14,611 nucleotides of DNA from positions 1-14,611 of the forward strand of contig SDNY01000093.1 in the NCBI GenBank assembly GCA_004524535.1, given 5' to 3'. Both the position numbers and the translations under genes were made by a program. The notes under the pieces are model-generated. The model searched no databases, was not told the origin of the DNA, and saw only the letters and a program-made list of their open reading frames with translations. Origin of the DNA: Promethearchaeota archaeon (GTDB taxonomy: Archaea > Asgardarchaeota > Lokiarchaeia > Sigyniarchaeales > SOKP01). Positions 1,674 through 12,056 of this stretch are shown in pieces; within the stretch, counting starts at the first letter, position 1, and each line of letters begins with the position of its first letter.

Positions 1674-2180
1674 ATGAAAAACATCCCGCCCCAATATCGA
1701 CTCAGTGAAGAGTTCAGGGATAATGATCTTAAAATACTGCTTGAGGAAAGACATCCGCATTCTAAGGGCTCAGAAGAGCTCAAGATCTATTCCAATTGGG
1801 GATGGGTCGAAACGATGGGAATTACTGATGAAAGCGGCAATAATATTGCATGGATACCAGATTTCATTAAATATCCTTCCGGAGATGGTGGAGGCGGTTA
1901 TCATATCTGTGAAGATCATATAGAAGAATTAGACTTCTTTTACGCTTACGGAACTCATGGTTATATAGAAGCACTAGAATATGTTCTTAGAACAATTAGG
2001 GATAATGAACCTTTACCTTATTTAGTGCCTGCTGATGAAGGAAATATAGGGCGCATATATAAAATTGAGGGCTCACCATATCTAATTGTAATATATGGGG
2101 GATCTGATCATCATATTCATACAGCATACCCAGTAGCAGATTTACCTAAGAATTTAATACCTCTAGAAGAAGGTTCTTAA
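1674..2180 (+). CDS. Hypothetical protein, probable polymorphic-toxin-type ribonuclease domain
   Basis: 168-aa ORF with G-x-x-H-I-x-x-x-H (GGYHICEDH), an upstream 'SGNNIAWI' strand, 'GRIYKI', and a terminal 'IHTAYP' strand. This pattern recalls toxin C-terminal RNase domains (BECR/EndoU-type). Family assignment is by eye only. Confidence 0.55.
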   Translation: MKNIPPQYRLSEEFRDNDLKILLEERHPHSKGSEELKIYSNWGWVETMGITDESGNNIAWIPDFIKYPSGDGGGGYHICEDHIEELDFFYAYGTHGYIEALEYVLRTIRDNEPLPYLVPADEGNIGRIYKIEGSPYLIVIYGGSDHHIHTAYPVADLPKNLIPLEEGS

Positions 2181-4149
2181 AAGATTCATCAAGAATTACA
2201 CTAAAATTAGGATTTAATTGATTCTTTATTTCTTTAAAAGTTTCAAAGATAGTATTGCATAATTTTGGAGTAATCAGATCCTTTCTTAGATTATAGACCA
2301 TTTTATATAATTCATCTAGCTTGTCAATAATATTCAAGGTTAAAGGCAATCTTTCTGGCTTTACATAGAAAGAATATTTATATCGCGTGTTTAGATTTTT
2401 CGGTCTAATACAAGTAGGTTCTGTTTTAAGGTCAAGACTAATTATATAAGGAGGGCTACAAATATTTATATTATTATTAGAAAGAATGTCTAATATTGAA
2501 TGTGCGGTCTCATCCATACATTCTGGATTAATTGAAAATATTTCAAGAGAACACATCTTTAAAATTGATTCTGGAAGTGAAGTAATAGGATTTCCATCTA
2601 TATGCAATTCTTTAAGCTTCATTAAATTACCAATGGAATTTGGAAGATCTTTTAAATTGTTATAATCGCAGAGTAGTATTTTAAGGGATTCAAGCTTATT
2701 TATATTCTCTGGAACGGATTCTAAATTGTTAAAACTTAAATTTAATAATTCCAAATTTTTCAAGCCTGAAATGGAATTAATGGATTCTAAATTGTTATGA
2801 TTTAAGTCTAAGAGCTCCAAATTTTTTAAACTTGAAATGGAATTAGGCAAGATTTTTAGATTATTCTTGCTCAGATCAAAAAAGTTTATGGAATTAAGTT
2901 CGAAAATAGTTTCAGGAACTTCTTCAATAAAATTTTTCTCTAATCTTAATTTTTCAAGGGATTTTAATTGAGAGATTACGGATGGAAATTCATCAAATTG
3001 ATTATCACTCAATTCTAATTCTTTTAGGAGTTTAAGATTACTCATTGAAGCAGGCAAAGATTTTAAAGCGTTTTTTAATAAATCTATTCTTTTCAGATTA
3101 GTAAGTTTTCCTATACTGTCGGGGATTTTGTCAAGGACACACCCTCTTAAATTAAGATTAACTATTCTTTTATTCACAATGGTTATGCAAGGTGAAAGCG
3201 GGGGAGGTCGCCCTTGAAACACATTTGGTTGATAAATATGAATAGGTGAATTTAGTATGGAGTACAAGTCTAAGAAAAAAGGAATTTCGTTGTTTATTAA
3301 CATTTTTTTGAGGAAACTTTCACTTTCATTAAAGATCCAATTTTTATAAAATTCCCTAACATTTGGTGCTTTTAACTCTATTAATCTATCAAGAATTTGA
3401 TAGCCATATTTAGGATCTTCTCTTAAAATTAGACTATAATCAAATTTTTTAAATAAATTATTCATATCATCACGATTAAGAGTTTTAATATAACTGTAGT
3501 TATTCCAGATTAGAGCTTTCATAATAGGATAATCATAATGTCTGAGATTATAGAGAGATTTGTTTTTCTTTGTTTTAAGTGTTCTTGATCTTGTAGAAGA
3601 ATTATAAAGAGCGATTAGAATTCTTGGTTTTTGTTTTATAATAAGTTCAAGATCAAGACCTTCAAATAAAGTATCAATTTCTTCAGCATTTAAATAATCC
3701 AAATAACGCTTACGAATTAAAAATTCAATAACAGAAGGATAACCACTTTGAAACCGTTTCGCAATTTCATCTTTAAATGCTCTTTTTGCCTTTGGATCAT
3801 TAATTTCTGGATTAGATAGTTTTTTTAATAAAGGAAACGCCAGATTAGAATGAAGAAATCTCGTATCGTAATTATTTTCTGCCCATAATTGCATATTGGA
3901 ACAATGTACAAAAAATTTTGTTTCATCAGGTATGTTGACTACTTCATGTTTAACTTTTTTTAATGAATTCGTATAATCTACGATTTCATCTACCGATTTT
4001 AAATCTTTAAGGAGATCTTCAAGCTCATAGGCAGTTTTTCTCATCAAGATATACTTACATTGAATAAATGGTTTGCCCCCTACATAAATATTGGTCCTAC
4101 CATCCTCTAATTTCAGCGTGATATATTCATTGACCTTAAACTCTCCCAT
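2146..4149 (-). CDS. Leucine-rich repeat protein with Lokiarchaeal-type N-terminal domain
   Basis: The N-terminus EFKVNEYITLKLEDGRTNIYV..FIQCKYIL...FVHCSNMQLWAENNYDTRFLHSNLAFPLLKKL is a pattern I recognise from an expanded Lokiarchaeal protein family. It is followed by about nine 22-23-aa LxxLxLxxNxLxxLPxxI repeats. Confidence 0.9.
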   Translation of the reverse strand: MGEFKVNEYITLKLEDGRTNIYVGGKPFIQCKYILMRKTAYELEDLLKDLKSVDEIVDYTNSLKKVKHEVVNIPDETKFFVHCSNMQLWAENNYDTRFLHSNLAFPLLKKLSNPEINDPKAKRAFKDEIAKRFQSGYPSVIEFLIRKRYLDYLNAEEIDTLFEGLDLELIIKQKPRILIALYNSSTRSRTLKTKKNKSLYNLRHYDYPIMKALIWNNYSYIKTLNRDDMNNLFKKFDYSLILREDPKYGYQILDRLIELKAPNVREFYKNWIFNESESFLKKMLINNEIPFFLDLYSILNSPIHIYQPNVFQGRPPPLSPCITIVNKRIVNLNLRGCVLDKIPDSIGKLTNLKRIDLLKNALKSLPASMSNLKLLKELELSDNQFDEFPSVISQLKSLEKLRLEKNFIEEVPETIFELNSINFFDLSKNNLKILPNSISSLKNLELLDLNHNNLESINSISGLKNLELLNLSFNNLESVPENINKLESLKILLCDYNNLKDLPNSIGNLMKLKELHIDGNPITSLPESILKMCSLEIFSINPECMDETAHSILDILSNNNINICSPPYIISLDLKTEPTCIRPKNLNTRYKYSFYVKPERLPLTLNIIDKLDELYKMVYNLRKDLITPKLCNTIFETFKEIKNQLNPNFSVILDESFKNLLLEVLNS
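2530..3165 (-). repeat. LRR tandem array (~9 units of 66-69 nt)
   Basis: Units such as LNLRGCVLDKIPDSIGKLTNLKR / IDLLKNALKSLPASMSNLKLLKE / FDLSKNNLKILPNSISSLKNLEL. Boundaries are approximate. Confidence 0.85.
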
Positions 4150-5342: not shown

Positions 5343-5852
5343 TTATTCTTTGGCATACTTGTCTGTCCATTTACGCGCTTTAGACTCAAATTTCTTCAAA
5401 TTCCTAAAATATTCTTCTCCTGCTTCGTGATTTAGTGGATCTCCGGGATTAAAGAAAGGAGCCTCATAATGCATCATGCCCTTTAAAGCTTCGATAATAT
5501 TAATTAAAGTTTTTGATGGTGTCCACCCGGATGCACCAGTACTCGCATCAACTTTACCTACGAGATCGGGATTAATCAAGTCCAGACAGATGTTAAGTTT
5601 GCCAGGGGGTATGCTAGAATCAATGTTAGGATGCCACATAAGAGTTACCGCATACGCGTACGGCGGAGCGAAGGGATAATTTTCAGGGAACTTAATCTCA
5701 AAAACAAATTTTCCATCCGCATATGGATTTCCTTTTTTACCAATAATAGTTAATCGTAAATGATCTATACTTCGCCCCCATGGTTCAATAATAACATATG
5801 GATCATCTTTATACGTCTCTAAAGCGTCCCCATAGTCATTTTCTTCACGCAA
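5343..5852 (-). CDS. Ubiquitin-conjugating enzyme E2 (UBC fold)
   Basis: G..GNPYADGKF.FEIKFPENYPFAPP, HPNI, catalytic ICLDL (Cys codon 5586-5588), GWTP, DPLN.EA, FESKARKWT.KYA. The start codon is uncertain (TTG at 5852; a near-frame ATG lies at 5863). Confidence 0.95.
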   Translation of the reverse strand: MREENDYGDALETYKDDPYVIIEPWGRSIDHLRLTIIGKKGNPYADGKFVFEIKFPENYPFAPPYAYAVTLMWHPNIDSSIPPGKLNICLDLINPDLVGKVDASTGASGWTPSKTLINIIEALKGMMHYEAPFFNPGDPLNHEAGEEYFRNLKKFESKARKWTDKYAKE

Positions 5853-6026
5853 ATTTCTTTCATCTCAAATATAAATATTTTTATAATTTAATTTAATAAA
5901 AAGATTTTAATAATTTAATAAAAAGGTTTGGAATTCATAAATTATACGGATTTTTCATTTTTTTATTATGAAAAAACTATTTAAAAAAAGATTTTATTTT
6001 AGGATTTTTAGAATCTTGCTTAAAAT

Positions 6027-6067
6027 CGTAAAAAATATATAAATTAAAGAATTAGATAATTATAAAA
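6027..6067 (+). promoter_or_regulatory. Candidate BRE/TATA promoter(s) for tRNA-Tyr
   Basis: cgtaaaaaa-TATATAAA (TATA 6036-6043) and TTATAAAA (6060-6067) lie upstream of the tRNA 5' end at 6086. The AT-rich background limits specificity. Confidence 0.4.
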
Positions 6068-6085
6068 AAACCCCTCTATAAATAG

Positions 6086-6273
6086 CCCCTCTTATTTAAA
6101 GGAATAACCTTTAAAGAGGTAAGCTCAGACTGGTAGAGCGCTCGGCTGTAGATGAAATCGCGTACTAAGGTTTTGTACCTATGAAGTTACGTCAGCCAGC
6201 AAAAACCGAGCGGCCCCCGGATGCGTCGGTCCAAAACGGAACGACGGCGGAACGAGGCCGGGAGAGGGGACCA
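6086..6273 (+). tRNA. tRNA-Tyr(GTA) with three introns (exons 6086-6093, 6122-6151, 6205-6222, 6253-6273)
   Basis: Acceptor stem CCCCTCT(6086-92)/AGAGGGG(6263-69), A73 and encoded CCA. D-stem GCTC/GAGC. Anticodon stem CTCGG/CCGAG with GTA at 6148-6150. T-stem CCCGG/CCGGG. C1:G72 plus A73 are the archaeal/eukaryotic Tyr identity elements. The spliced product is 77 nt. Confidence 0.92.
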
Positions 6274-6381
6274 TTTTATTTTTCTTTATAGACTTTAATT
6301 AGTTTCTACATTTAACTTCAAAAAAATTATTATTTTAATTTCATTATTCTTAACTATAAAGTTAAAAGAAAAAAGAATTAA

Positions 6382-7299
6382 ATGAAAAAAAAGAGTACAG
6401 CCGTTGTGGGTGCGGGATGGTTCGGAAGGGCTCATATAAGAAACTTTAATGAGCTTTCAAATTTAGTTTGCGTTTGTGATATCGATAAGGCAAAATTGGA
6501 GCAAGTTGCTAAACAATATGATATAAATACTTATACAAATGTGGATGATTTGATAAAAAGTGAAGAAATTGACGCAGTTAGCATTGTAACCCCGCCTAAA
6601 TTTATACCTTCCATATCAAAAAAATTTGCATCGGCTGGAATTGACATTCTAATGGAAAAACCAATGGCATTAAATATCCAAGAGTTAAAAGCTTTCTTGG
6701 ATTATGAGAATAGTATTAAAATTTTACCCGCCTTCATAGAACTTTATAATCCTGTTTTTGAAAAACTTTTAGAGCATTTACCTCAAATTGGTGAAGTATT
6801 TTCAATTACCTCAAGGAGAATTGGATTATATCCCAAAAGAGACTGGCAAATGGGAGTTATATTAGATTTGTCAATACATGATATATATTTACAAGAGAGG
6901 ATCTTAGGCAAAGAAAATTTTGTAGATGCGTTTGGAGTAAAAAAATGCTTTAAAGATGATATACACGCCGATGCTGCGTTTATAGTATTAGATTTTGGAA
7001 ACTCAATTGGACATATAGAATCGAACTGGCTTACTCCTTCAAAATTTAGAAAAATGTATCTTAGTGGGGTTTCAGGTGGAATAATTGTAGATTTTATGAA
7101 TCAAAAAATTAAAATCAATACGGGAATAGATTTACAAGGAGACTGGCCCGTAAATAAAGAAATATCGTATACTCCTTTAAGAGCTGACGAACCTCTTAGA
7201 AGAGAAATTAATAATTTTCTCTACGATAAAGAACCTCTTGTAACACTAGAAGATGGTATAAGAGCTTTGGAAATTGCTTTAAAAATCGTTAATAATTAA
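6382..7299 (+). CDS. Gfo/Idh/MocA family NAD-dependent oxidoreductase (nucleotide-sugar dehydrogenase-like)
   Basis: Rossmann AVVGAGWFG, MEKP motif, GVILDLSIHD, SNWLTP.K.R, EPLRREI..F. Confidence 0.9.
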   Translation: MKKKSTAVVGAGWFGRAHIRNFNELSNLVCVCDIDKAKLEQVAKQYDINTYTNVDDLIKSEEIDAVSIVTPPKFIPSISKKFASAGIDILMEKPMALNIQELKAFLDYENSIKILPAFIELYNPVFEKLLEHLPQIGEVFSITSRRIGLYPKRDWQMGVILDLSIHDIYLQERILGKENFVDAFGVKKCFKDDIHADAAFIVLDFGNSIGHIESNWLTPSKFRKMYLSGVSGGIIVDFMNQKIKINTGIDLQGDWPVNKEISYTPLRADEPLRREINNFLYDKEPLVTLEDGIRALEIALKIVNN

Positions 7300-7894: not shown

Positions 7895-8896
7895 ATGGCT
7901 TTAAAAAAAGTAAAGAAAAAAGATTTTATTAGTACTCAAGAATGGGATAAAGAGGAATTGGATGAGTTATTAAAGTTAACAAAAGATGTGAAATTAAATC
8001 CAAAAAAGTATAGAAATTCCTTAGATGGAAAATCTATATGCATGTTTTTTTATAATCCCTCAACTCGAACAAGAAATTCGACTCAAGTGGCAGCCTATCA
8101 ATTAGGTATGCAAGCAACTTTTAACAGCATTAAAGATTCTTGGATTGGCTATAAATCTGAGTCTGTAAAAGACACAGCGATAGTTTTATCAAGATATTAC
8201 GACGCAATTGGAATTCGATTATTCCCTAATTCTGTAAATTGGATTTATAAGGAAGGAAATAAAATTCTTCGGGAATTTGCGAAATGGGCTCCTGTTCCTA
8301 TTATTAATTTTGAAGATGATCAATTCCATCCTCTCCAAGCACTTACAGATATCTTTACAATAAAAGAGAAAAAGAAAGAAGTTAAAGGAAAGAAGGTTGT
8401 GATTTCGTGGGCTTATCATCCAAATCCTTTGCCATTAAGTGTTCCAAACTCTATTTTGCTTATAACTACTCGATATGGAATGAATGTGACTTTAGCTCAT
8501 CCAAAAAATTATGAATTAGATGATGAAATCTTAAATATGGCACATCAAAATGCGAATGAATCAGGGGGATCCCTTGAATTTTCTAATGATATAGAGGATT
8601 CTTATAAAGATGCTGATGTCGTCTACATTAAAAGCTGGGGCTCAATAAAGGAATATGGAAATGCGAAAGCAGAAAAGCCTCTAAGAGTACCTTATAGAGA
8701 TAGTTGGAGAATTCAAGAAAAATATTTAGAAAATACTCAGAATGATTCAATTCTAATGCATTGTTTACCCATTAGACGAAATATTGTCGCAGAAGATGCA
8801 GTAATTGATGGAAAGCATTCCATTGTGTATGATCAAGCAGAAAACCGTCTTTATACAGCTAAGTCACTTCTCTATTATTTACTTAAAGAGAAATAA
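7895..8896 (+). CDS. argF: N-acyl-ornithine carbamoyltransferase (AOTCase/SOTCase, ArgF'-type)
   Basis: Carbamoyl-phosphate motif FYNPSTRT, HPLQALTD, the ArgF'-specific WAYHPNPLP..V.NS and HCLPIRRN. The ATG at 7895 is preferred over the TTG at 7883. Confidence 0.85.
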   Translation: MALKKVKKKDFISTQEWDKEELDELLKLTKDVKLNPKKYRNSLDGKSICMFFYNPSTRTRNSTQVAAYQLGMQATFNSIKDSWIGYKSESVKDTAIVLSRYYDAIGIRLFPNSVNWIYKEGNKILREFAKWAPVPIINFEDDQFHPLQALTDIFTIKEKKKEVKGKKVVISWAYHPNPLPLSVPNSILLITTRYGMNVTLAHPKNYELDDEILNMAHQNANESGGSLEFSNDIEDSYKDADVVYIKSWGSIKEYGNAKAEKPLRVPYRDSWRIQEKYLENTQNDSILMHCLPIRRNIVAEDAVIDGKHSIVYDQAENRLYTAKSLLYYLLKEK

Positions 8897-8901
8897 AAGA
8901 A

Positions 8902-9456
8902 TTATTGTTCTCTAGCAGATATGGTGGCTATAACTTCATATTCTCCATTGTCGAATTGTTTTGAGTCAATATTAGCAAATTGAAACGCAAAAGGCCTTGT
9001 GAAGATTTGCTCTACCATAGGAGCGAACGAGCTAACAGCAAATATTAAAACTCTTTTTAGAATTCCCTCAACTTTATCTTGAATATTCAGTTCCTTCATA
9101 ACTTCTTCAACAACAGCAATTTCCTTTTGATTATAATGATACCTATATACACATTTAAAATCAACGGTGGTGGGCGCTTCAGGATCTTCAAGTGATAAAC
9201 CCCCTTTTCTAAAAGGAAAGATTGTTGTTAGATAAAAATAAAATATTTCTTCATAATGATCTTTTAAAAGATTCGCAATCATGAAACGATGTTCATAGTT
9301 TTTCCAATAAGCTTTCATAAGTTCTAAAAGACGAGGATAATTTTTATATTTATTTTCGGCGTCCTTTCTTAAATAGTTAAGTAAGGCGTTTTTAAGTGGT
9401 TTAAATTCGCTCTCCTTTCCTGCCCGTAATAAAAATTTTTTGAATCTAATACTCAT
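8902..9456 (-). CDS. Hypothetical protein
   Basis: 184-aa ATG-initiated ORF with plausible composition that fills the gap convergent to argF'. No motif recognised. Confidence 0.7.
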   Translation of the reverse strand: MSIRFKKFLLRAGKESEFKPLKNALLNYLRKDAENKYKNYPRLLELMKAYWKNYEHRFMIANLLKDHYEEIFYFYLTTIFPFRKGGLSLEDPEAPTTVDFKCVYRYHYNQKEIAVVEEVMKELNIQDKVEGILKRVLIFAVSSFAPMVEQIFTRPFAFQFANIDSKQFDNGEYEVIATISAREQ

Positions 9457-9711
9457 TATTTGCTGTAGACGAATAGTTGTTATTGAATATTTATTTCTTC
9501 TATAATATTTAAATAATTTAATCTTTTGTATTTAATCCTACCATTATTTCACTCATACTTTCAAAAAATAAATAAAAGATTAAAAAAAGAAATAATATTA
9601 GGATATAATTAATAATAATAGAATTTCTTGACAAAAGATACTTAAAAAAATTAGAGGTAATAGGAGATTTTTGATTCTAGCTCGTATACGAGATCAGAAG
9701 ATACATTATTC

Positions 9712-10827
9712 TTGAATGCGCTTACTCCAAATATAACAGAAATGCCTTTTATTTATGAAGCAATAGAACGTTTTTGTGAAGTAAAAACTTCGATTGACCC
9801 GAGTAGTAGATATAATGTGTCTTTTTTTGAAGAGAACGGTCCAAATTATCTTGAAGATTTCACCTTAAATTCCGAACATATTCTACTAACATTAAAGTCA
9901 TTAGAACCCGTTATTATTGGAGGAAATATCGGAGGAGGTATTTTTGTGGGAATTTCGTTTATTATTCAAGCTTTTAAAATTATTGGTGAAAAGGCTTTTC
10001 GCTTAATTGTATTTTCTGATGCATACACACCAAAAATTGCACCAGTATATTTACCTGTTCTTCAAAATTTGATCTCCCAAGTCAAAGACATGCCATTATT
10101 TATTGATATTATTAGAATTAAAATAAAAGATCCTGAAGAAGACGAAAAATTACAGAAATTGGTGAAAAGGTGTAATGGGGAAATTCTTTATGTAGAAAAG
10201 CTTAATGAGTTACCTCAATTATTAGAGACATTAGCATTAAAGAAAAAGATTAAGAGAAGTTCATTGGAGGATGGAAAATATATAATTCCCCAAGATAGCC
10301 ATTTATTTTACATAAACTTGGCAGAAGATTTAGCTGAAGTAAAAAAACACGATACATGTTCTATTTGTTTTGAAAAAGATGCGACAGATCTATTGAAGTG
10401 TAAAAAATGTGGAACTAAAGCTCATAGGACTTGTTGGGCACAATGGGCTCCAGAAACCTCGATAGGAATACCTCACGTCTTTAGGTGTTTTAATTGTTAT
10501 AATTTAATAAGACTTGATAGAGAATATATTGAAAAAGTTAAGTTTACTAAGGCAATGCAACGTGATATTCGAGTAGAACTTTTAGATATTCAAGATTATT
10601 TAAAAAGTCATGAATCACAGGAAGCCCCACAGGTAATTCAAGCAGAAAATGTATTGGGAATCTCTACTGGAGTATCTGATGCTAACCAAATCGAGACCCC
10701 CAAAACTGAAGATATTAAAAAAGAAATAAAGGATGAGGAACTTAAATTTATTTTATGCCCACACTGTTATAAGATGATAACTAATGAGTATAAAATTTGT
10801 CCCGCATGTCATAAGACAATTAAATAA
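9712..10827 (+). CDS. vWA domain (Rpn10/Ssl1/MERIT40-like) + C4HC3 PHD/RINGv finger + C-terminal zinc ribbon protein
   Basis: AIERFCEVKTSIDP...RLIVFSD...FIDIIRI...LQKLVKRCNGEILYV gives a vWA beta/alpha pattern. CSIC-x10-CKKC-x4-HRTC-x15-CFNC is the finger, and CPHC-x10-CPAC is the ribbon. The frame is open back to 9664, so the true start is probably upstream of 9712. Confidence 0.75.
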   Translation: MNALTPNITEMPFIYEAIERFCEVKTSIDPSSRYNVSFFEENGPNYLEDFTLNSEHILLTLKSLEPVIIGGNIGGGIFVGISFIIQAFKIIGEKAFRLIVFSDAYTPKIAPVYLPVLQNLISQVKDMPLFIDIIRIKIKDPEEDEKLQKLVKRCNGEILYVEKLNELPQLLETLALKKKIKRSSLEDGKYIIPQDSHLFYINLAEDLAEVKKHDTCSICFEKDATDLLKCKKCGTKAHRTCWAQWAPETSIGIPHVFRCFNCYNLIRLDREYIEKVKFTKAMQRDIRVELLDIQDYLKSHESQEAPQVIQAENVLGISTGVSDANQIETPKTEDIKKEIKDEELKFILCPHCYKMITNEYKICPACHKTIK

Positions 10828-10859
10828 TAGAAAAAAAATTACTGTTTATAATTATTATA

Positions 10860-12056
10860 ATGGTTGGCAATAAAGTTGGTTTAATCTGGTCTAATGATTA
10901 TCAAAGATATAATTTTGGACAAAGTCATCCGTTACGCCCCCAACGGCTGGAGCTGACTTATAGCTTAATGCAAAAGCTGGGGCTTCTTGATAACCCTCGA
11001 TTAGAAATTATTTCTCCTCGTATGTGTACTAAAGAAGAATTGGAGATGGTCCATTCTCCAAAATATATTGATATAGTTAAAAAACTCAGCGATAATCCAG
11101 AAGATAATTCAATTATTCCTTTCCGATATGGATTAGGGCCTGGGGATAATCCAATTTTTAAGGGTATGTATGAGGCATCTGCTTTGATTTGTGGAGGATC
11201 TCTAATAGCTGCTGATAAGGTTTGGACTGATGATGAATTCAATGTAGCTTTTAATTTTGCTGGAGGACTTCATCATGCTGTTAAAGATAAAGCCTCAGGA
11301 TTCTGTATTTTCAACGATATAGCTGTGGCAATAGCACATCTCAAAAAAGTACAAAAAGATATCCGAATCGCATACTTAGATATTGATTGCCATCATGGAG
11401 ATGGTGTTCAATGGCTATTTTACGATGATCCTGACGTTCTAACTATTTCATACCATGAAACTGGACAATTCTTGTTCCCTGGAACAGGAAATCTTAATGA
11501 ACGAGGCGAAGGAAAAGGAAAAGGATTTTCAATTAATTTTCCTTTATTGCCGGGAACTAATAATAAAATATATTTGAATTTATTCCGAAAAACAGCTCCT
11601 AGAATATTGGAAACTTACCAACCAGATATATTGATATCTCAATTAGGAGTTGATAGCTATTTTGATGATCCATTAACTCAAATGGGGCTTTCAATCCAAG
11701 TATATAGGGATATTGCTCAAACCCTAAAAACAAGCGCAAAAGAATATTGTCAAAATAAATGGCTTGCTTTAGGTGGGGGGGGTTATTTAATTTCAGTTGT
11801 ACCAAGAGCATGGAGCTTATTTCTAGCCAAAATGCTGGATGTGGACTTAAATAATGAATTACCTCAAAGTTGGATTGAAGAGGTGAAAGAAAAAGCTCCT
11901 CATGAAAATAAACCATATTTATTATGGGATAGAGATGATAAAACGAAAGTTGAGATGCTTGCCAATCCCGAAATCGCAAAAAAAATGATCAATTATACAA
12001 AAGAACTTATTAAAATATGTGATGAGGATTTTATCCCAGCTTTAATTGGTTCCTAA
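10860..12056 (+). CDS. acuC: Zn-dependent histone deacetylase family protein (class I HDAC / AcuC-like)
   Basis: FGQSHPLRPQR, GGLHHA, SGFCIFND, YLDIDCHHGDGVQ, FPGTG, GVD...DPL and GGGGY: the full catalytic set. Confidence 0.92.
   Translation: MVGNKVGLIWSNDYQRYNFGQSHPLRPQRLELTYSLMQKLGLLDNPRLEIISPRMCTKEELEMVHSPKYIDIVKKLSDNPEDNSIIPFRYGLGPGDNPIFKGMYEASALICGGSLIAADKVWTDDEFNVAFNFAGGLHHAVKDKASGFCIFNDIAVAIAHLKKVQKDIRIAYLDIDCHHGDGVQWLFYDDPDVLTISYHETGQFLFPGTGNLNERGEGKGKGFSINFPLLPGTNNKIYLNLFRKTAPRILETYQPDILISQLGVDSYFDDPLTQMGLSIQVYRDIAQTLKTSAKEYCQNKWLALGGGGYLISVVPRAWSLFLAKMLDVDLNNELPQSWIEEVKEKAPHENKPYLLWDRDDKTKVEMLANPEIAKKMINYTKELIKICDEDFIPALIGS

Follow-up and report, generated by a model that had tools for sequence, protein, structure and literature searches.

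Among Asgard archaea, tRNA genes with several introns have already been published together with an (alpha-beta)2 endonuclease EndA bearing the L1/CSL loop (Kaneta 2018, PMC5829648; preprint 10.64898/2026.10.13.758758). In the available parts of these two sources, the genes carry several BHB-type introns outside the canonical position (in the D arm and the T arm), are missed by standard annotators and point to repeated lineage-specific intron gains, and the locus described here resembles them in all these respects and in its predicted enzyme. The preprint focuses on Freyr-, Jordi- and Atabeyarchaeaceae, whereas our genome is that of a Promethearchaeota member; its available text holds no Tyr, K-turn or L7Ae, and its per-gene tables may include this gene or its relatives. 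Thermoproteales (e.g. Pyrobaculum) likewise have up to three introns per tRNA gene with relaxed BHB/BHL junctions, cut by a heterotetrameric, CSL-bearing EndA that needs K44 for cleavage (Hirata 2011, PMC3241643). They belong to another phylum; the genome studied here is mesophile-like with 30% GC and gained introns at its positions independently.

The tRNA-Trp intron of Euryarchaeota carries a box C/D guide. It is comparable to the tRNA-Tyr intron reported below in being a K-turn RNP module of a canonical intron, able to act on the precursor that contains it as ours may; however, it directs methylation and has C, D, C' and D' boxes, whereas our intron has a single K-turn with no D-box partner and two "guide" strands that pair with each other. 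In eukaryotes, pseudouridine 35 (Psi35) of tRNA-Tyr is the classic intron-dependent modification. The same nucleotide is modified in the pre-tRNA-Tyr of Sulfolobales through Sso1/sR115, which needs the intron-containing precursor and, like our module, pairs over the anticodon stem-loop and the intron (available parts of PMC2651775 and PMC11077068); it is a classic trans guide that has both a lower stem and ACA and occurs in organisms with a crippled Pus7, whereas Pus7 looks intact here. Atypical H/ACA guides without lower stem and without ACA, as in our case, are described for Pyrobaculum and Sulfolobus islandicus in the available parts of PMC4652768 and PMC11077068. Those guides come from sRNA genes of their own and act in trans, unlike our candidate module, which lies in the intron of its own target, the substrate strand being continuous with the candidate guide via a 3-5-nt loop.

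The window analysed here, a stretch of 14,611 bp, comes from a Promethearchaeota (Asgard) genome, in agreement with the origin supposed in the first-pass annotation. It contains on the forward strand, at 6086-6273, a tRNA-Tyr(GUA) gene divided into four exons by introns at 8/9, 37/38 and 55/56 (Table 1). The exons, joined by script, give a 77-nt sequence identified by ARAGORN as tRNA-Tyr(gta). By ARAGORN and a pairing check it forms a cloverleaf whose acceptor, D, anticodon and T stems measure 7, 4, 5 and 5 bp and whose 7-nt anticodon loop carries GUA; each of the 21 stem pairs is Watson-Crick, so both the identity and the perfectly paired stems proposed earlier hold. The exon blocks, and with them the three intron positions, were recovered without any splicing motif when the locus was aligned with the mature tRNA sequences from three orthologues that have a single intron (L003, L074 and L043; 5-7 mismatches in 74); with a fourth, more distant one (L005, 15 mismatches) the same alignment misplaces the third insertion. 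The start of exon 2 (6122) is the exact start of BLAST matches in relatives. A73, an identity element of tRNA-Tyr, is present (A6270). The C1-G72 pair (C6086-G6269) corresponds to the one required by archaeal TyrRS according to the available parts of PMC3491384 and PMC3695527. The universal nucleotides U8, A14, G18G19, U33, G53, U55, C56, A58 and C61 are all in place, while position 54 of the T loop is A and not U.

Table 1. Position of the features of the tRNA-Tyr gene, its splice-site structures, its intron module and its flanks in the window.
Feature	Position	Strand	Remarks
Promoter-like block (BRE/TATA-like)	6026-6045	+	some 45 nt 5' of the gene
Repeat of 7-nt acceptor 5' strand	6071-6077	+	second copy, in the 5' leader
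Exon 1	6086-6093	+	8 nt; tRNA positions 1-8 (acceptor 5' strand, U8)
Intron 1	6094-6121	+	28 nt; at 8/9
Intron 1 BHB	central helix 6088-6091/6116-6119; inner helix 6095-6102/6108-6115; bulges 6092-6094 and 6120-6122	+	computed geometry
Exon 2	6122-6151	+	30 nt; positions 9-37: D arm, anticodon stem 5' strand, G37
Anticodon GUA	6148-6150	+	in exon 2
Intron 2 (canonical)	6152-6204	+	53 nt; at 37/38
Intron 2 relaxed BHB	6152-6204	+	central helix 3/4 (C32.A mismatch), inner 2 bp, outer = anticodon stem
Helix M	6151-6153 with 6157-6159	+	3-nt loop; G37 and first two intron nt paired
K-turn hairpin	6160-6192	+	lower stem 6160-6166/6185-6192, U6187 bulged
K-turn tandem pairs	A6168.G6183, A6167.A6184	+	3-nt bulge 6180-6182
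K-turn C stem	6169-6171/6177-6179	+	loop 6172-6176
3' guide-like pentamer	6193-6197	+	complementary to positions 30-34 (6144-6148)
Exon 3	6205-6222	+	18 nt; positions 38-55
Intron 3	6223-6252	+	30 nt; at 55/56
Intron 3 BHB	central 6217-6219/6248-6250 and G.G mismatch; inner 6224-6228/6242-6246	+	computed geometry
Exon 4	6253-6273	+	21 nt; positions 56-76 with A73 and encoded CCA
T-rich tract	6274-6289	+	directly 3' of the gene

The first-pass annotation had stated that all three junctions follow the cleavage rule of EndA. This is exact for intron 1, with 4/4 Watson-Crick pairs in the central helix, an inner helix of 8 bp and 3-nt bulges with the predicted cut behind their second nucleotide; in introns 2 and 3 one of the four central pairs is mismatched (3/4), which makes them relaxed BHBs. 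The canonical intron, having no real inner helix, is of the relaxed type for this reason as well. Compared with the strict hBHBh' form, the flanking helices of all three introns are relaxed: the outer helix of intron 1 has 1 bp (3 bp if a single bulge is allowed), while intron 3 has an outer helix of 1 bp and an inner one of 5 bp. When 6080-6130 was folded alone, the helices and the 3' bulge of intron 1 were formed (z = -2.69), whereas in the full-length MFE the acceptor stem outcompetes this BHB. For intron 3 the MFE fold differs from the BHB, and the segment is no more stable than shuffled ones (z -0.24). The chance expectation per specified junction pair is about 2e-5 for intron 1, 2-3e-2 for intron 2 and 1-2e-3 for intron 3. 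We abandoned BHB counting as a stand-alone test because the pattern is too common in this AT-rich DNA, a hairpin-like 4-position helix plus an inner helix of at least 5 occurring 75 times in 2.5 kb, where shuffled sequences average 44; the weight therefore rests on the coincidence with the junctions defined by homology.

The relaxed-specificity endonuclease called for by such junctions has a candidate, since two EndA paralogues are encoded in the genome. The alpha protein (L021 ORF) is most like the catalytic subunit of A. pernix (3p1z_B, E 7.6e-37), keeps the Y/H/K residues and, in an ungapped alignment, has K-P-R opposite K44-P45-R46 of the CSL, where Lys44 and Arg46 have a role in cleavage (PMC3241643). 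In the beta-like protein (L022 ORF) the position of the catalytic His reads Ser by alignment to 1a79. The genome thus encodes a predicted (alpha-beta)2 EndA with a broad-specificity CSL/L1 loop; a gene for the RtcB ligase is also present. We suggest that a precursor of about 190 nt with a short leader would be transcribed from the gene, that this EndA would cut out the three BHB-type introns at the predicted sites, and that RtcB would join the exons.

In the unspliced window, ARAGORN reports no tRNA and Rfam gives no match, as the first-pass annotation had foreseen for standard scanners; this silence is expected and does not count against the gene, because it is interrupted three times. Even among the one-intron orthologues, only L005 passes RF00005 (47.5 bits), L003, L074 and L043 being below. 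No other tRNA-Tyr was found in the genome by ARAGORN -i (22 calls, none of them Tyr), by blastn-short or by the covariance model R1, which has one match, so the locus is the sole tRNA-Tyr detected, as far as the assembly allows: the genome is a MAG of 198 contigs (completeness 99.11%), and its contamination of 4.41% limits the meaning of "only copy". No second copy of the exons or of any of the three introns was found there by blastn-short, and intron copying between genes was discarded as an origin of the introns. Contigs of two other metagenome studies (X5 record 13; X6 records 17 and 18) run across all the introns and differ from the locus by 5 and 3 changes, all of them in introns and flanks and none in exons. 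Two natural variants of intron 3 (6229 G>A, 6234 A>G) both fall at unpaired positions. Among RNA runs, none was found to contain the locus. The "skips 250/255" joints in X5 were set aside, being single AT-rich contigs at 85% likeness.

We consider, with a probability of about 0.9, that 6086-6273 is a functional, apparently single-copy tRNA-Tyr(GUA) gene with three introns predicted to be spliced by proteins. That it could instead be a decaying pseudogene, whose "introns" are junk insertions while a working gene lies in unassembled DNA, seems very improbable. The fragmented assembly, the rejection of the locus by standard scanners and the unusual A54 would suit such an origin. However, the same odd T loop is found in L003, uninterrupted but for its one intron, the exons are intact with every stem paired, the insertions lie exactly at BHB junctions, a block upstream is conserved, the metagenome variants spare the exons, and 120 of 150 genomes of the class have a match, one per genome, in which the canonical intron is conserved in sequence and structure.

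All of the 49 distinct orthologues compared have the canonical intron and differ in their extra introns, four other genes having three introns as well. Judging from this distribution, the canonical tRNA-Tyr intron is ancient, while introns of the T loop, D arm and variable region come and go. Intron 1, at 8/9, occurs among these 49 only in this genome (G000) and in G008, where it has two changes and a hairpin longer by one G-C pair; by its distribution it is a recent, genus-internal gain. The three-intron gene is one more case of a described Asgard habit, extra introns being normal for this archaeal group, and the novelty implied by the first-pass annotation was overstated, as multi-intron tRNAs and a CSL-type EndA are already in print for Asgard archaea (PMC5829648; 10.64898/2026.10.13.758758, in the parts available). 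For annotation it is a warning, since the sole tRNA-Tyr found in a 99%-complete genome escapes both ARAGORN and Rfam. With only 15 (Rfam) to 22 (ARAGORN) tRNA calls in the genome, the tRNA sets of MAGs of this kind are severely under-annotated.

The canonical intron also contains a conserved K-turn module, which had gone unremarked in the first-pass annotation. Covariation in 79 distinct sequences indicates that this intron includes a K-turn hairpin within a three-way junction with the anticodon loop, where only U35 (6149) and A36 (6150) stay unpaired, as they do in 79/79. Helix M, in which the 5' splice site is buried, covaries (AU 61 / GC 10 / UA 5; UA 53 / AU 8 / GC 2) and is 100% paired in an unfitted MAFFT alignment (n=18). 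The hairpin agrees with the definition of the kink-turn (PMC7991803), having a C stem closed by G-C, a 3-nt bulge and tandem sheared G.A / A.G. At the sheared positions G and A are each kept in 78/79 sequences, 1n is A in 69/79 and the bulge reads N-A-U (A 74, U 76); position 2n is mostly A (A 43, G 25, U 8), and therefore the second pair is often A.A. Families f10 and f32 have K-loop variants. The spacing between the GA and the next helix is 8 nt in 74/79, and between the pocket and the distal G.A the stem has 9 pairs plus one conserved bulged nucleotide, with a 3' strand of 10 nt in 74/79. Around it are flanks of 3 nt (5') and 5-6 nt (3'), and the pairing of the pentamer reaches position 29 in 97/128 sequences, with C-G to U-A changes; family f17 has a C32.A mismatch in this 3' duplex.

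The module occurs once per genome in at least two Asgard classes and is also found in records labelled DPANN (Woesearchaeota, Nanoarchaeota) and Thermoprotei. It has no Rfam family, and the K-turn three-way junction in the canonical tRNA-Tyr intron is new relative to the literature searched, in which no description of it was found. A classic H/ACA guide was rejected, as the 3' strand after 6192, in our sequence and in related ones, has no lower stem of 7-9 bp and, at 14-16 nt from the pocket, no ACA/ANA box. A box C/D sRNA was also rejected, given the one K-turn without partner C/D boxes, the wrong spacing and the mutual pairing of both "guides"; the intron ends carry no conserved C or D box.

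What the module does allows three readings. The geometry of an atypical H/ACA RNA, with about 10 layers and a 3' guide of 5-6 nt, means that it may direct pseudouridine-35 in cis: tentatively, L7Ae would bind the K-turn, Cbf5-Nop10-Gar1 would dock on the stem, the pentamer and the trimer 6157-6159 would clamp the anticodon loop with U35 exposed, and after Psi35 formation the precursor would refold into a splicing-competent form. The topology is that of guide and substrate, the 3' guide ending at the nucleotide 5' of the target and the 5' guide starting at G37, with U35 and A36 left unpaired throughout. The stem, with its bulged nucleotide, and the 3' duplex fit the productive archaeal guides, which have 10 stacked layers, a bulged nucleotide sometimes stacking to make the tenth, and 3' duplexes of 5-6 nt (available parts of PMC4652768). 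In the available parts of PMC11077068, guides lacking both lower stem and ACA work in vivo and in vitro, Cbf5 pseudouridylating them in cis when folded back on their own 3' guide, and Psi35 of pre-tRNA-Tyr in Sulfolobales is H/ACA-guided with pairing across the intron. Genes for Cbf5, Nop10 and two L7Ae-family proteins are present in our genome; the corresponding P. furiosus proteins work with guides of the atypical kind. Against a guide, besides the missing lower stem and box, stand a 5' duplex of only 2-3 bp and the mismatch of f17. Pus7/TruD is also encoded, keeps both the Lys of motif IIIa and the Asp-Arg-Arg of motif II, and occurs in 5/5 DPANN carriers, so on present knowledge a guide is not needed; its absence was accordingly dropped as an argument for one.

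Just as tentatively, the module may be a structural or timing device bound by L7Ae with no guide function. The 37|38 junction lies within helix M and the pentamer takes nucleotides of the BHB central helix in another register, therefore the two folds are mutually exclusive; the junction would make the 5' splice site inaccessible, along with a portion of the anticodon stem, and so delay or order splicing. Alternatively, the module would aid the folding of a weak (BHL/hBH-type) canonical intron, which may need help because its inner helix has 0-1 bp in 63/73 orthologues. However, such a device leaves unexplained both the constant 8-nt spacing to the K-turn and the unpaired U35 and A36 in all sequences, and we found no precedent in the literature searched. 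An unlikely third reading is that the excised, probably circularised intron persists as a stable K-turn sRNA acting in trans on rRNA or others. Once freed, it would be a hairpin with two single-stranded flanks, an atypical H/ACA shape, and the available parts of PMC3491384 report that archaeal tRNA introns can house C/D sRNAs and that the tRNA-Met intron of N. equitans yields a stable RNA. In opposition to this, C and D boxes are absent, and both flanks covary with the host pre-tRNA: the first two intron nucleotides pair with the trimer, including G-C and U-A variants, while mature position 38 stays A. The partner is therefore the precursor and not a foreign target.

Returning to the cis guide, the tRNA-Tyr intron may tentatively be regarded as a self-contained, ACA-less H/ACA-type guide in Asgard archaea and in the Woesearchaeota-, Nanoarchaeota- and Thermoprotei-labelled records. 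If so, the precursor would guide its own pseudouridine-35 before refolding and splicing, as a pseudouridylation counterpart of the tRNA-Trp intron guide. This would offer a mechanistic, pre-eukaryotic reason for the persistence of the tRNA-Tyr intron and for the intron-dependence of Psi35 in eukaryotes. The module would tie together intron retention in tRNA-Tyr, the L7Ae/H/ACA machinery and that eukaryotic modification.

In the flanks of the gene, the leader copy of the acceptor 5' strand is also seen in G008 and is absent from orthologues lacking intron 1. The BRE/TATA-like block also lies 5' of tRNA-Tyr in orthologues from several genera, and this conserved block would act as the promoter. 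The T-rich tract is probably the transcription terminator, because transcription in archaea terminates at oligo-T.

Direct reading of 5900-6450 placed the exons and insertions exactly where the first-pass annotation had put them (see the table). In Sprinzl numbering, with one additional D-loop nucleotide (17a), the insertions interrupt the tRNA at 8/9, 37/38 and 55/56, and an encoded CCA is followed by a T-run. Spliced in silico, the exons yield a 77-nt molecule (68.8% GC) that ARAGORN calls tRNA-Tyr(gta), and 21/21 stem pairs are Watson-Crick, in agreement with the claim that all four stems are paired after splicing. The gene was also expected to be missed by scanners, and in the unspliced window ARAGORN found no tRNA, and Rfam reported no family either with its gathering score as cut-off or with E up to 10.

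Features at and around the tRNA-Tyr(GUA) gene, in window coordinates
Feature	Position	Length	Strand	Remark
LRR protein	2146-4149	667 aa	-	flanks tRNA gene
Ubiquitin-conjugating E2 (UQ_con)	5343-5852		-	flanks tRNA gene
tRNA-Tyr(GUA) exons 1-4	6086-6093, 6122-6151, 6205-6222, 6253-6273		+	direct reading of 5900-6450
Three insertions, in gene order		28, 53, 30 nt	+	direct reading
Prokaryotic RING-finger	9712-10827		+	weak match; flanks tRNA gene

By BLAST, the region 6040-6320 matched 22 genomes among 40 relatives. G008, from the same genus, is 98% identical along the entire region; in the other matched relatives the similarity begins only at 6122, and thus exons 1 and 2 form one uninterrupted stretch there. 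Global alignment to the mature sequences of L003, L074 and L043, orthologues with the canonical intron alone, uses no splicing motif and returned exactly the blocks 6086-6093, 6122-6151, 6205-6222 and 6253-6270, with mismatches at 5-7 of 74 positions. The alignment to L005, which is more distant (15 mismatches), puts the third insertion at the wrong place. All three introns are also present in two other metagenome studies, X5 (record 13, 6053-6350, 5 differences) and X6 (records 17 and 18, 6038-6366, 3 differences); the listed differences are all in introns or flanks (6107, 6229, 6234 and others), with 0 in exons. Another X5 contig belongs to a relative with exon 1 directly joined to exon 2, and the upstream block 6026-6045 is common to orthologues from other genera. 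A search among RNA runs found none that contains the locus. We consider the three-intron tRNA-Tyr gene to be real, with a probability of about 0.9.

The T-loop position 54 (window 6221) is A, while U54 is near-universal elsewhere; among orthologous tRNA-Tyr genes it varies between A, C, U and G (L003, L005, L011, L014, L016). The Rfam tRNA model passes L005, with a standard T loop, and fails three other orthologues. The 7-nt acceptor 5' strand has a second copy in the 5' leader (6071-6077), 8 nt upstream of exon 1, which is also found in G008 and missing where orthologues have no 8/9 intron. This copy may be a trace of the origin of intron 1, or an alternative partner for the GAGG of this intron.

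The source genome, G000 (3.66 Mb in 198 contigs, 99.11% completeness, 4.41% contamination, 30.4% GC), has no second tRNA-Tyr among 22 ARAGORN intron-mode calls, some of them spurious, and blastn-short found no further copy of the exons or introns. R1, a covariance model of the intron module described below, has a single match. These searches address the question, left by the first-pass annotation, of whether this is the only tRNA-Tyr gene: no other was found in the 99.11%-complete genome. With RF00005, of whose 280 candidates 150 were scored, there are at least 15 hits; the 22 ARAGORN calls, several of them spurious, lack Ala, Asn, Asp, Cys, Glu, Thr, Trp and Tyr. Probably, the majority of tRNA genes in this genome are interrupted like tRNA-Tyr. 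A 'tRNA-Val' called by ARAGORN in intron mode at 8050-11067 (-) has a 2927-nt intron over several ORFs (OTCase, a histone-deacetylase-family gene) and is almost certainly a false positive. The E2, LRR and RING-finger matches belong to the eukaryote-like signature proteins that Asgard genomes typically encode.

A 2026 Asgard preprint (10.64898/2026.10.13.758758) reports that tRNA genes of three focal families have a mean of 2.2 intervening sequences each, against 0.91 in other Asgard families, that a single gene has up to five, and that tRNAscan-SE misses 25-30% of them. In our own census of tRNA-Tyr orthologues (49 distinct genes, positions accurate to about 3 nt), all 49 have the canonical intron, about 27 a T-loop intron (55-60), 8 a D-arm intron and about 5 a variable-region intron. 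The 8/9 intron is confined to G000 and G008, and four further orthologues (L018, L070, L036, L088) also have three introns. Given these rates and the census, the three-intron architecture belongs to a known kind and is ordinary for its lineage; the per-gene supplementary tables of the preprint may already include this gene.

Bulge-helix-bulge (BHB) geometry was scored as an outer helix, a 4-bp helix, a 3-nt bulge cut after the second nucleotide and an inner helix. The first-pass annotation had all three junctions obeying the endonuclease (EndA) rule, which is exact only for intron 1, where the central pairs are Watson-Crick at 4/4 positions (6088-6091 with 6116-6119) and the inner helix has 8 bp. 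The other two are relaxed, with 3/4 central pairs each: in intron 2 the mismatch is C32.A, the anticodon stem serves as outer helix and the inner helix has just 2 pairs; in intron 3 the mismatch is G.G, with 5 pairs in the inner helix. By chance, junction pairs do as well at rates of about 2e-5 for intron 1, 2-3e-2 for intron 2 and 1-2e-3 for intron 3. BHB-like patterns abound in AT-rich DNA (75 observed versus a mean of 44 in shuffles), so the evidence lies in their coincidence with the homology-defined junctions. Folded alone, 6080-6130 is predicted to form the 3' bulge and central helix (z = -2.69), and the 3-nt 5' bulge may slide two positions at equal energy; the intron 3 BHB is not the minimum-energy fold. 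In the full-length minimum-energy fold the acceptor stem forms in place of the intron 1 central helix, so the predicted BHB would be plausible mainly co-transcriptionally.

G000 encodes RtcB and two EndA paralogues. The alpha paralogue is most like the A. pernix catalytic subunit (3p1z_B, E 7.6e-37), with Tyr/His/Lys present, and in an ungapped alignment its K-P-R faces K44-P45-R46 of the Crenarchaea-specific loop; K44 is required for cleavage and the loop gives broad specificity (PMC3241643). The source names of its close homologues are Promethearchaeota, Lokiarchaeota and Hermodarchaeota. The second paralogue resembles the M. jannaschii and M. kandleri enzymes and, with Ser at the catalytic His position, fits a structural beta subunit. 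The pair agrees with the (alpha-beta)2 EndA bearing the L1 loop that Kaneta et al. 2018 describe in Asgard archaea (PMC5829648).

The canonical intron is conserved in sequence between genera by BLAST. In A2, a MAFFT alignment of 18 orthologues unfitted to structure, RNAalifold found a stem capped by a hairpin, and a pentamer 3' of it (6193-6197) that pairs with positions 30/31-34. Helix M, added by eye, pairs G37 and intron nucleotides 1-2 with the three nucleotides immediately 5' of the stem. In A2, 96.4% of cells pair, double changes occur in 8/17 pairs, and the covariation score was reached by 0/500 shuffles. A further alignment of 79 distinct sequences was fitted to the model and hence leans towards structure, with 93.2% of cells paired versus 78.1% in shuffles and covariation of 0.409 versus 0.150. 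In it, helix M pairs are AU 61 / GC 10 / UA 5 and UA 53 / AU 8 / GC 2, and the only unpaired junction nucleotides are U35 and A36 (79/79). The apical part has a K-turn signature: the C stem begins with G-C pairs and is followed by a 3-nt bulge (N-A-U); at the sheared positions, G and A (78/79 each) face A (69/79) and A/G. Families f10 and f32 carry K-loop variants. As a comparative observation from sequences, the putative K-turn three-way junction is solid. We found no description of it in openly accessible full texts, the preprint or Rfam 15; one may exist in subscription papers (e.g. the original Pyrobaculum H/ACA-like paper) or supplements. In L080 (genome G052), two anticodon-arm and K-turn-intron modules lie about 930 nt apart (1501-1556 and 2435-2490, -), one with an altered anticodon-stem 5' strand; they may represent a duplicated or decaying tRNA-Tyr gene.

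The covariance model matched 120/150 genomes of the class, once each, and 44/151 at phylum level. Matches outside the class are in families f17 (12/19), f10 (3/13), f9 (1/2), f19 (1/4), f27 (1/7) and f32 (1/1), and many other families, e.g. f12 (0/26), have none. Scanned with a pattern, the genomes of 185,579 species gave at least 120 matching stretches, 80 of them given as loci, and the structure model scores 45 of these 80 at E < 1e-3. Among the matches listed, 22 of the 45 carry Promethearchaeota/-eia, Hermod-, Hod-, Thor- or Odinarchaeota labels, 8 Woesearchaeota, 2 Nanoarchaeota, 2 Thermoprotei/Thermoproteales and 5 'uncultured archaeon'; 5 are labelled 'uncultured Methanosarcinales', a doubtful label on sequences like the Woesearchaeota ones, and 1 is a bacterial-labelled bin with a family-f1 sequence. 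The remaining 35 loci, mainly with bacterial labels, do not reach E < 1e-3. Three of bacterial label (L105, L120, L132) were rejected as chance matches, the closing stem missing in two and the scores poor in all. The DPANN and Thermoprotei copies have the Asgard architecture with canonical G.A/A.G pairs; the 8-nt spacing is fixed by the scan pattern, so these matches are no test of it. The Woesearchaeota record L175 (G276) is flagged unpublished, and the claim of occurrence beyond Asgard archaea is independent of it. L153, labelled Nanopelagicaceae bacterium, has a tRNA-Tyr gene of Promethearchaeota type, and L113, L135, L149, L154 and L181, labelled Methanosarcinales, have genes of Woesearchaeota type; the labels or purity of these bins look doubtful.

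The module could be a cis H/ACA-like guide for Psi35, a tentative reading. In archaeal H/ACA guides, the pseudouridylation pocket lies below a K-turn or K-loop (PMC7991803). Every solved and productive fold stacks 10 layers between the pocket-closing pair and the G.A pairs, a count to which a bulged nucleotide may contribute by stacking, and the 3' duplex is 5-6 nt (PMC4652768). Here, 9 pairs and one conserved bulged nucleotide make 10 nt on the 3' strand in 74/79 sequences, and the 3' flank pairs with 30-34, plus position 29 in 97/128 sequences, including a C-G to U-A change. In the GC-rich Thermoprotei/Thermoproteales copies L161 and L122, the complementarity extends to 27/28-34 (7-8 bp) and spans the whole anticodon-stem 5' strand, which speaks for real pairing rather than a sequence motif alone. 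The 5' duplex has 2-3 bp, and the 'target-N' dinucleotide would be U35-A36. Unlike classic H/ACA, the module has neither a lower stem nor any ACA at 14-16 nt; 'atypical' guides without either are found in Pyrobaculum, those of S. islandicus are active in vivo and in vitro, and such guides are pseudouridylated in cis by Cbf5, the 5' flank folding back onto their own 3' guide (PMC11077068). According to the same source, Psi35 of Sulfolobales pre-tRNA-Tyr is H/ACA-guided, with a pairing that spans the intron. G000 carries Cbf5, Nop10 and two L7Ae-family genes. Against a cis guide, however, the genome encodes Pus7 with an intact Lys in motif IIIa and an intact Asp-Arg-Arg in motif II, 5/5 DPANN carriers also have Pus7, and family f17 has a C32.A mismatch.

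Alternatively, the module could be a structural or timing device, which is possible and likewise uncertain, whereas a trans-acting sRNA made from the intron is improbable. The 5' splice site lies hidden within helix M (6151-6153/6157-6159), and the pentamer shares nucleotides with the BHB central helix, so that the module fold and the splicing fold are mutually exclusive. In a comparison of 73 orthologues, the BHB of the canonical intron is relaxed in type: its central helix has 3/4 pairs in 47, 4/4 in 25 and 2/4 in 1, and its inner helix has 0-1 bp in 63.
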